A DNA stretch of 64,000 nucleotides from an uncultured Verrucomicrobiae bacterium. GTDB taxonomy: Bacteria; Chlamydiota; Chlamydiia; Chlamydiales; Rhabdochlamydiaceae. The DNA lies in NCBI GenBank assembly GCA_963818965.1, contig CAWFUG010000011.1, forward strand, positions 128,001-192,000, written 5' to 3'. The notes under the pieces are model-generated. The model had not been told where the DNA came from and made no database searches. It worked only from the letters and a program-made list of their open reading frames with translations. The translations under genes were made by a program, and so were the position numbers. This document shows, piece by piece, positions 11,100-11,467 of the stretch. Numbering within the stretch: the stretch's first letter is position 1; each line of letters opens with the position of its first letter.

Positions 11100-11235
11100 C
11101 TCACGCCTAATTTCTCAAAAATATAAAAATAATTAAAAATAACTAATCGCAAGCAGCAATTAATTGGCGAAACAGCAGAATTCTAATAAAATTTTAGAAT
11201 CCTAAAAAAAAACACGAATGAGTAAAAAAAAGAAT

Positions 11236-11310
11236 TTACCCCAAAAAGGGTGGAGGCGGGGGTGCGTTGATTATTTGACGATCAGATACTGTAAAAAAGA
11301 TCTCTTCCAT
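11236..11310 (-). CDS. Candidate proline-sensing leader peptide MEEIFFTVSDRQIINAPPPPPFLG
   Basis: ATG preceded by GGTGGT; codons CCC CCG CCT CCA CCC; followed by U-rich tracts; 136 nt upstream of proB; extended -10 TGGTAGAAT at 11371-11379. Confidence 0.7.
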   Translation of the reverse strand: MEEIFFTVSDRQIINAPPPPPFLG

Positions 11311-11467
11311 ATCTACCACCAACGGCTGATTTAACGAGACTTAGGACATCTATTGTCCGTTACAATTAACATTCTACCAAAATGAACCTTTACAAGTCCA
11401 TGGAAACATTAGGCCCTATCGTCAATGAAAGCTTCTGTCGATTTTCTGGTTCTTTTGATGACAGACC

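Follow-up and report, generated by a model that had tools for sequence, protein, structure and literature searches.

A proline-codon leader ORF upstream of proBAC in environmental chlamydiae: a candidate proline attenuator that may work through Rho occlusion

This work describes a short leader open reading frame (ORF) that ends in a run of proline codons and precedes the proBAC operon in a chlamydial genome and in most proB-bearing genomes of its family. The window, that is, the whole stretch of DNA that was analyzed, comprises 64,000 nucleotides, and the leader and operon lie on its minus strand (Table 1). The ORF very probably serves as a proline sensor for proBAC, with charged tRNA-Pro as the quantity sensed; it would be a cis-acting leader peptide gene on which proBAC expression depends. 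For the overall mechanism, the arguments seem to us evenly balanced for and against a waiting ribosome that hides the C-rich Pro codons from Rho. The elements from which the original prediction had been assembled (an extended −10, GGTGGT, a 24-aa ORF, the Pro codons, ACCC/GGGT pairing, U8, U9, and proBAC) were all confirmed on the minus strand; the hairpins at 11202–11178 and 11165–11141 were absent from that prediction.

Where proline supply is known to govern transcription of proBA, it does so through the T-box of Bacillus and its kin; a Pro-run leader before proBAC would fill the proline gap in the classical set of attenuators. It would also show that poly-Pro, which stalls even well-fed ribosomes in an EF-P-dependent manner, can be tuned into an amino acid sensor. 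To our knowledge, Pro-codon leaders have been characterized only before Mg2+ genes, and we know of no leader-peptide attenuator validated in the Chlamydiota. The element is small, portable, and testable, and in symbionts of amoebae or animal cells it could provide a read-out of host proline supply.

The proBAC locus and the distribution of its leader

Table 1. Features of the leader and the proBAC operon, in window coordinates.
Feature	Position	Strand	Basis or remark
Candidate sigma-70-type promoter: −35-like TGGACT, 18 nt, extended −10 TG-TAGAAT	11371..11400	minus	9/12 consensus match, TG present; match to consensus only
−35-like hexamer	11395..11400	minus	18 nt upstream of the extended −10; sequence
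Extended −10 (TG + TAGAAT)	11371..11379	minus	sequence
Small 5′ hairpin GGACA/TGTCC	11344..11358	minus	motif recurs in 5/35 leaders
SD-like GGTGGT of leader ORF	11315..11320	minus	sequence
Leader ORF, 24 aa	11236..11310	minus	ATG at 11310, TAA ending 11236; five Pro, then 3 codons and TAA
Pro-codon run CCC CCG CCT CCA CCC	11248..11262	minus	putative sensing codons; putative C-rich Rho loading site
Hairpin A: last Pro codon (CCC) with G run just 5′ of the stop (ACCC/GGGT)	11238..11251	minus
U-rich, G-poor single-stranded tract 3′ of the stop	11204..11235	minus	U8 at 11231–11224, U9 at 11212–11204
Hairpin B	11178..11202	minus	conserved, covarying, no U tract behind
Hairpin C	11141..11165	minus	AU-rich stem, then broken U tract
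proB, glutamate 5-kinase, 258 aa	10323..11099	minus	start 11099; TIGR01027 above cut-off
proA, glutamate-5-semialdehyde dehydrogenase	9067..10326	minus	NF001221 and TIGR00407 above cut-off
proC, pyrroline-5-carboxylate reductase	8273..9055	minus	TIGR00112 above cut-off

The genome (2.24 Mb, ∼47% GC) encodes rho, two EF-P homologues, and tRNA-Pro with GGG and TGG anticodons. The leader ORF ends 136 nt before the start of proB, and the start of proA overlaps the proB stop. proB covers positions 1 to 256 of the 363 in TIGR01027 and lacks the C-terminal PUA part of the model; the short form is found in most of the window's family, and many other families have a longer open frame of ∼375 aa. In several homologous leaders a −10-like hexamer lies at a similar distance, −59 to −69 from the ATG. 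The upstream regions of this genome (975, from crude gene calls) contain 1,094 short ATG ORFs; the leader has the sole run of five Pro among them, and only 3 contain four or more consecutive Pro. This rarity and the recurrence of the leader in other genera set it apart from chance. A search of positions 10000 to 12500 against Rfam returned no relevant family and no T-box match at an E value of ≤10, and the leader peptide has no meaningful NCBIfam or Pfam family match. Elsewhere in the window, one in-frame stop near 7844 divides a DUF3800 gene (7241–8092, minus strand) into two parts, both of which match PF12686. The plus-strand ORF at 15771–17213 encodes a predicted secreted protein of 480 aa with a long poly-Pro linker (window region 16900–17100), an obvious predicted client of EF-P.

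Within the family, proB is present in 24 of 129 genomes, and with one locus lacking its 5′ end, 23 loci were assessable. A Pro-rich leader ORF precedes proB in 21 of these; the other two have a divergent gene upstream of proB. Occurrence of proB itself is patchy, with 69 positive genomes among the 400 scored in a sample of the phylum and none among the 29 of the small-genome family f28. Outside the family, the leader was found in 9 of 51 proB genomes, distributed over f5 (2/2), f36 (1/1), f16 (1/2), f39 (1/2), and f30 (4/15, plus one broken copy). No leader was found before proB in f27 (12 genomes), f32 (5), f29 (3), f35 (3), or six single genomes; in leader-less families, proB often lies directly 3′ of another gene. 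None of the 80 named-genome proB loci listed, 79 of them non-chlamydial, carries the element. Metagenomes searched with a 28-nt pattern yielded 20 matches; proB lies downstream of 6, one of these being a repeat of a genome already counted; five further leaders thus come from metagenome contigs, and the remaining 14 matches resemble chance. Together, the leaders of the family, of other families, and of metagenome contigs form the set of 35 analyzed here.

In a quick tree of 96 proB sequences, all 34 leader-bearing rows fall inside one 44-row branch (support, 88), and the nearest proB relatives outside the phylum, in the sample treed, are Anaerolineae. As reconstructed, the tree is compatible with a single origin of the leader followed by several losses, without proving it. 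A leader profile built from 22 leaders and searched over the 129 family genomes gave 18 matches at an E value of <1e-4, of which 17 are training proB leaders; the remaining one belongs to a 56%-complete genome, where it sits 50 nt from the end of a contig. Inspection extended to ten weaker loci, and across these genomes the profile search placed no copy of the leader before any other gene. A strict DNA pattern applied to 401 phylum genomes gave 5 matches, of which 4 were leaders already known and 1 looks like chance; this pattern is insensitive, missing even the window's own genome.

Several loci depart from the common form. One leader (L180; G084:C4, 88169–88237) has a one-base frameshift before the Pro run, with the contig ending 50 nt later, and another (L125; G413) has an early stop just 5′ of the Pro and hairpin part; both broken copies reflect either decay or assembly error. 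Long palindromic insertions resembling small mobile repeats lie between leader and proB in L029 and L201 (spacers of 315 and 333 nt) and, in the upstream regions of L114 and L116, where the leader would be. At L019 (G072:C37), proB has an internal TGA stop and the leader is intact. In a gammaproteobacterium of the Thiotrichales (L108), an unrelated 18-codon ORF with three terminal Pro codons lies 107 to 50 nt before proB; as the only such instance, it could be a coincidence or a proline leader of independent origin. Two high-GC metagenome contigs (L208 and L214) have in common a similar C-run/G-run element and ∼25 conserved downstream bases, and in L214 the element precedes a 358-aa ORF that may be DAHP-synthase-like.

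Selection on the proline codons and features of the leader RNA

In the 17 leaders of 24 codons, the ATG, Pro20, Pro21, Gly24, and TAA are invariant, and Pro20 is nevertheless written with all four Pro codons across the set. Conservation by codon position in these leaders is 0.95/0.94/0.69 over codons 17 to 21 and 0.67/0.79/0.71 over codons 2 to 16, where there is no third-position relaxation. Non-C bases within the C run occupy codon position 3 in 77 of 120 instances (30 leaders), and length differences among the aligned ORFs preserve the frame. The leaders range from 17 to 37 aa, with N-terminal sequences very different from clade to clade, and across all leaders, conservation of the peptide is confined to Met, the Pro run, and Gly at the end. 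As far as alignments can tell, selection is on the Pro codons and the start, and hardly on the remaining peptide. With its free third positions and its recurrence before proB in relatives, the leader bears out the expectation of a conserved Pro-run uORF with synonymous variation. On sequence grounds, it is strongly supported that the ORF is apparently translated and tied to proB.

Start signals vary. An SD-like motif precedes the ORF in 20 of the 35 leaders; a −10-like hexamer 5 to 8 nt before the ATG occurs in 8 of the 15 leaders without an SD (L009, L012, L021, L027, L028, L031, L201, and L008) versus 1 of the 20 SD-led ones. The transcripts of these eight are probably leaderless, and SD-led and apparently leaderless versions alternate inside one family.

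These observations bear on the view that the ORF encodes a small functional peptide, or is the untranslated by-product of a C-rich RNA or DNA element, with no ribosome-mediated control in either case. Certain N-terminal residues do recur in the 24-aa class (Phe6, Ser9, Arg11, and Gln12), and the frameshifted and prematurely terminated copies described above also count in its favor. The variable length and N-terminus, the restriction of third-position relaxation to the Pro block, the way in which SD or leaderless promoter spacing follows the ATG, and the lack of a family match for the peptide all speak against this view, which we consider very improbable.

In 31 of 35 leaders, the last Pro codon is placed 3 codons ahead of the stop. 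Within the last 11 residues, 25 leaders have 4 or 5 Pro and 3 have only two Pro codons. Over 30 leaders, the Pro codons are CCC (59), CCT (45), CCG (13), and CCA (13), close to this genome's background of 0.37/0.31/0.17/0.16 in the same order. The use of all four Pro codons, which had been remarked upon in the original prediction, holds for this leader but is not conserved, with several homologues using only CCC and CCT, and we rejected it as a design feature.

The same codons could report the general state of translation (EF-P, m1G37 tRNA modification, Mg2+, or osmotic stress) and not proline, as has been argued for Salmonella mgtL; the mgtA leader is Mg2+ responsive via mgtL translation. Consistent with such a role are the two EF-P genes, the density of Pro in most leaders, and the last codon, which is nearly always CCC and in most cases has a U behind it, a context described as slow and slippery in PMC8129111. 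However, the leader was found before the proline-synthesis operon only, the fixation of CCC is accounted for by pairing with the G run, and homologous leaders with only two Pro codons exist (L118 and L126). We therefore regard this reading as distinctly unlikely, and EF-P as a defining input, which had been part of the original prediction, is not supported, given the 3 leaders in 35 with just two Pro in the last 11 residues.

At the RNA level, 29 of 30 leaders have CCC as their last Pro codon, and a G run of at least 3 follows in 34 of 35; the G run is kept in L130 even though it lies outside the Gly frame there, and in L119 and L132 the stop falls within the loop. The resulting hairpin A has 3 to 5 bp and a mean probability of 0.71 in naked RNA. 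RNAalifold on 20 leaders returned only a 3-bp hairpin A with no two-sided change, that is, no compensatory change. The Pro block is 65% C and 6% G (35 leaders), partly as a consequence of the Pro codons, and the first 15 nt 3′ of the stop are 61% U and 3% G (35 leaders). Ranked by C over G within their own loci, the 78 nt surrounding the stop have a median place in the top 2%, which is again partly a Pro-codon effect; the argument from C-richness is partly circular, as Pro codons are C-rich regardless. Relative to proB usage, synonymous choices in the leaders avoid G (z, −2.9) and favor T (z, +3.1), in rows that are not independent.

Farther downstream, hairpin B was recovered in 17 leaders with 91.8% of cells paired and two-sided changes in 5 of 8 pairs, a result seen in 0 of 500 shuffles; the 17 rows were picked from the 35 because they bear the motif, and the covariation figure is accordingly biased upward. 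Hairpin C is often present 3′ of hairpin B. The spacer from leader to proB measures 56 to 333 nt (median, 134; 35 leaders). Terminator-like hairpins occur in 11 of 35 spacers, compared with 12% of shuffles, and at least 5 U in the 8 nt after hairpin A are found in only 17 of 35 leaders.

Ribosome position, dwell time, and a possible role for Rho

Switching between alternative structures was examined by equilibrium folding, which can overlook kinetic switches. The G run pairs with sequence 3′ of it no better than in shuffles (mean z, +0.34; 11 of 30 negative). The 63 spacer hairpins had mean probabilities of 0.76/0.75/0.75/0.75 over four modeled states, namely, no ribosome, a ribosome on the first Pro codon, on the last Pro codon, and at the stop; 9 shift by more than 0.3 between states, and 54 do not. 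Access to the proB ribosome-binding site was likewise unchanged between modeled ribosome states (0.44/0.44/0.46). A classical antiterminator (a 2:3 helix) was rejected on this basis, as was a switch that sequesters the proB ribosome-binding site. With the last Pro codon 3 codons from the stop, stalled and terminating ribosomes would cover nearly the same RNA and differ in dwell time; the distance from Pro run to stop appears too small for position-based switching.

One alternative is that the leader senses proline through intrinsic termination, with the position of the ribosome deciding, as in trp or his leaders, whether a weak terminator (hairpin C, or hairpin A plus the U tract) forms. It draws on the RNA-level conservation of hairpin A with U-rich sequence behind it, on a terminator scan that lists this hairpin as terminator-like, on the excess of terminator-like hairpins in spacers over shuffles, and on the covariation of hairpin B. 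Against this, 24 of 35 spacers have no terminator-like hairpin, no antiterminator helix exceeds shuffles, and hairpins B and C do not respond to modeled ribosome position. Hairpin A would, moreover, be illogical as a terminator: the stop should still be inside the polymerase while the U tract is transcribed, so that a fed ribosome could not yet have finished and left, and a stall upstream promotes termination in the experiments described in PMC5021804. The original prediction had implied that the CCC/GGG hairpin and U tract form the regulated terminator; this is not supported, as the stem is short, many leaders have fewer than 5 U in the 8 nt behind it, and control would be missing or of the wrong sign with a ribosome at the Pro codons or immediately ahead of them. 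Overall, we judge intrinsic termination to be rather unlikely.

A proline-sensing leader could also act after transcription, with the stalled ribosome shielding the U-rich tract from an endonuclease or altering proB initiation, and with hairpins B and C guarding a processed 5′ end. RNase E-type sites usually have stable hairpins downstream of unpaired, AU-rich RNA, and the leader's U-rich tract and hairpins match this layout; hairpins B and C are also constitutive in our models. Because accessibility of the proB ribosome-binding site does not change between modeled states and the range of spacer lengths argues against coupling or reinitiation, we hold this possibility to be unlikely.

We favor occlusion of a Rho site because no classical switch was found, the last Pro codon lies near the stop, and composition runs to C over G. 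When proline is low, a ribosome would wait on the Pro codons and cover the leader's only C-rich stretch; loading of Rho would be blocked, and RNA polymerase would proceed into proB. When proline is ample, the ribosome would complete the ORF and depart, exposing the C-rich Pro codons and the U-rich tract, whereupon Rho would load and terminate transcription within the 56- to 333-nt spacer, with hairpins B and C as its pause sites. The signal would then be ribosome dwell time and not a choice between two sets of hairpins. Hairpin A would most likely pause the polymerase until the ribosome has caught up, mask the last CCC where it protrudes ahead of a stalled ribosome, or do both.

Traits expected for Rho occlusion are present: a weakly structured tract with C over G at the 3′ end of the uORF (in part a result of the Pro codons), rho in this genome, and a spacer of sufficient length. 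Rho-mediated polarity is reported as demonstrated in Chlamydia trachomatis (PMC7755916). According to PMC5021804, termination in Escherichia coli goes up when a ribosome stalls at six Pro codons that precede either a rut site or an intrinsic terminator. Given these stall data, the Rho model holds only if the exposed U-rich tract alone is a poor Rho site, and rut sites are hard to predict.

A histidine-codon leader and comparison with known systems

In the same genome, 131 nt before a polar amino acid ABC transporter operon, there is a 42-codon ORF with a terminal His run (G000:C9, ∼254125–254255, plus strand; L219/L220), behind which come a U tract and a hairpin. The ORF was found in 26 of 30 homologous transporter loci (30 of 40 matches compared), and 2 of the other 4 are incomplete. 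It is, as far as its layout indicates, likely a histidine-sensing leader. It again has its control codons next to the stop, with a U tract and hairpin behind them, but lacks a G run, which suggests that the Pro and His leaders follow a common chlamydial design in which hairpin A is an add-on and not part of the core. We tentatively propose, while thinking it somewhat less probable than its opposite, a chlamydial proline attenuator whose sensing codons also serve to load Rho and whose output is set by dwell time, with the same chassis serving histidine uptake. If this is true, a pyrimidine-rich uORF that has its control codons beside the stop, together with a U tract and pause hairpins, would constitute an unrecognized family of amino acid sensors in obligately intracellular bacteria.

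In agreement with the original prediction, which knew of no such description for proBA, the literature searched (most subscription papers lying outside it) yielded no proline leader peptide, either for proBA or in environmental chlamydiae. A 2007 note of the Lyubetsky group reportedly deals with how proteobacteria regulate proline biosynthesis, and a 2010 survey by the group with attenuation across phyla; either could contain an earlier prediction. Term searches of two supplements gave no proline or proB entry in that of PMC4833913 and, in that of PMC2965389, proB rows for only two Bacillus T-boxes and one unannotated Pseudomonas terminator, with no proB row for Protochlamydia. A candidate trpL attenuator of C. 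trachomatis is doubted in PMC7755916.

The proline T-box of Bacillus proBA and proI, derepressed as uncharged tRNA-Pro accumulates (PMC13198045), has the same physiological logic and the same target genes. However, a T-box binds tRNA directly and needs no translation, and the proBAC leader has no T-box match. The classical attenuators of E. coli and Salmonella (hisL, trpL, pheL, and thrL) also combine a short ORF, a run of end product codons, and a biosynthetic operon, and their control codons likewise belong to the 5′ strand of a hairpin. In contrast to them, the proBAC leader has no detected 2:3 antiterminator or conserved strong 3:4 intrinsic terminator, its control codons lie 1 to 3 codons before the stop, its amino acid is proline, and it has no Rfam match. 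As such, it is like an amino acid attenuator, yet on the antiterminator test it falls outside the classical hairpin-switch class.

Consecutive Pro codons in a leader ORF are common to the proBAC leader and to Salmonella mgtP (mgtCBR) and mgtL (mgtA), where they respond to charged tRNA-Pro (PMC3641672) with a Rho-dependent outcome (PMC12360218). The latter control Mg2+ transport and virulence targets by refolding alternative stem-loops, whereas the proBAC leader precedes proline synthesis, no refolding was found, and NCBIfam and Rfam indicate no sequence relation. The poly-Cys leaders of actinobacterial cys operons have cognate codons near the stop, pyrimidine tracts behind, some leaderless starts, and no conserved terminator hairpin, and Rho has been proposed to act there (PMC1262725). 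The proBAC leader resembles them in its codons near the stop, pyrimidine tracts, and some apparently leaderless starts; it differs in amino acid and phylum and adds the conserved hairpins A, B, and C.

In Bordetella cruR and E. coli tnaC and speFL, a ribosome held near the end of the uORF shields a Rho site, inside the ORF in cruR and adjoining it in tnaC and speFL, and its release leads to termination (PMC12360218). These are nascent arrest peptides that sense a ligand, whereas the proBAC leader peptide is not conserved in sequence, and its ribosome would be held at cognate codons by missing Pro-tRNA. Although it is not an arrest peptide, the proBAC leader is closest in geometry to these Rho-occlusion attenuators.
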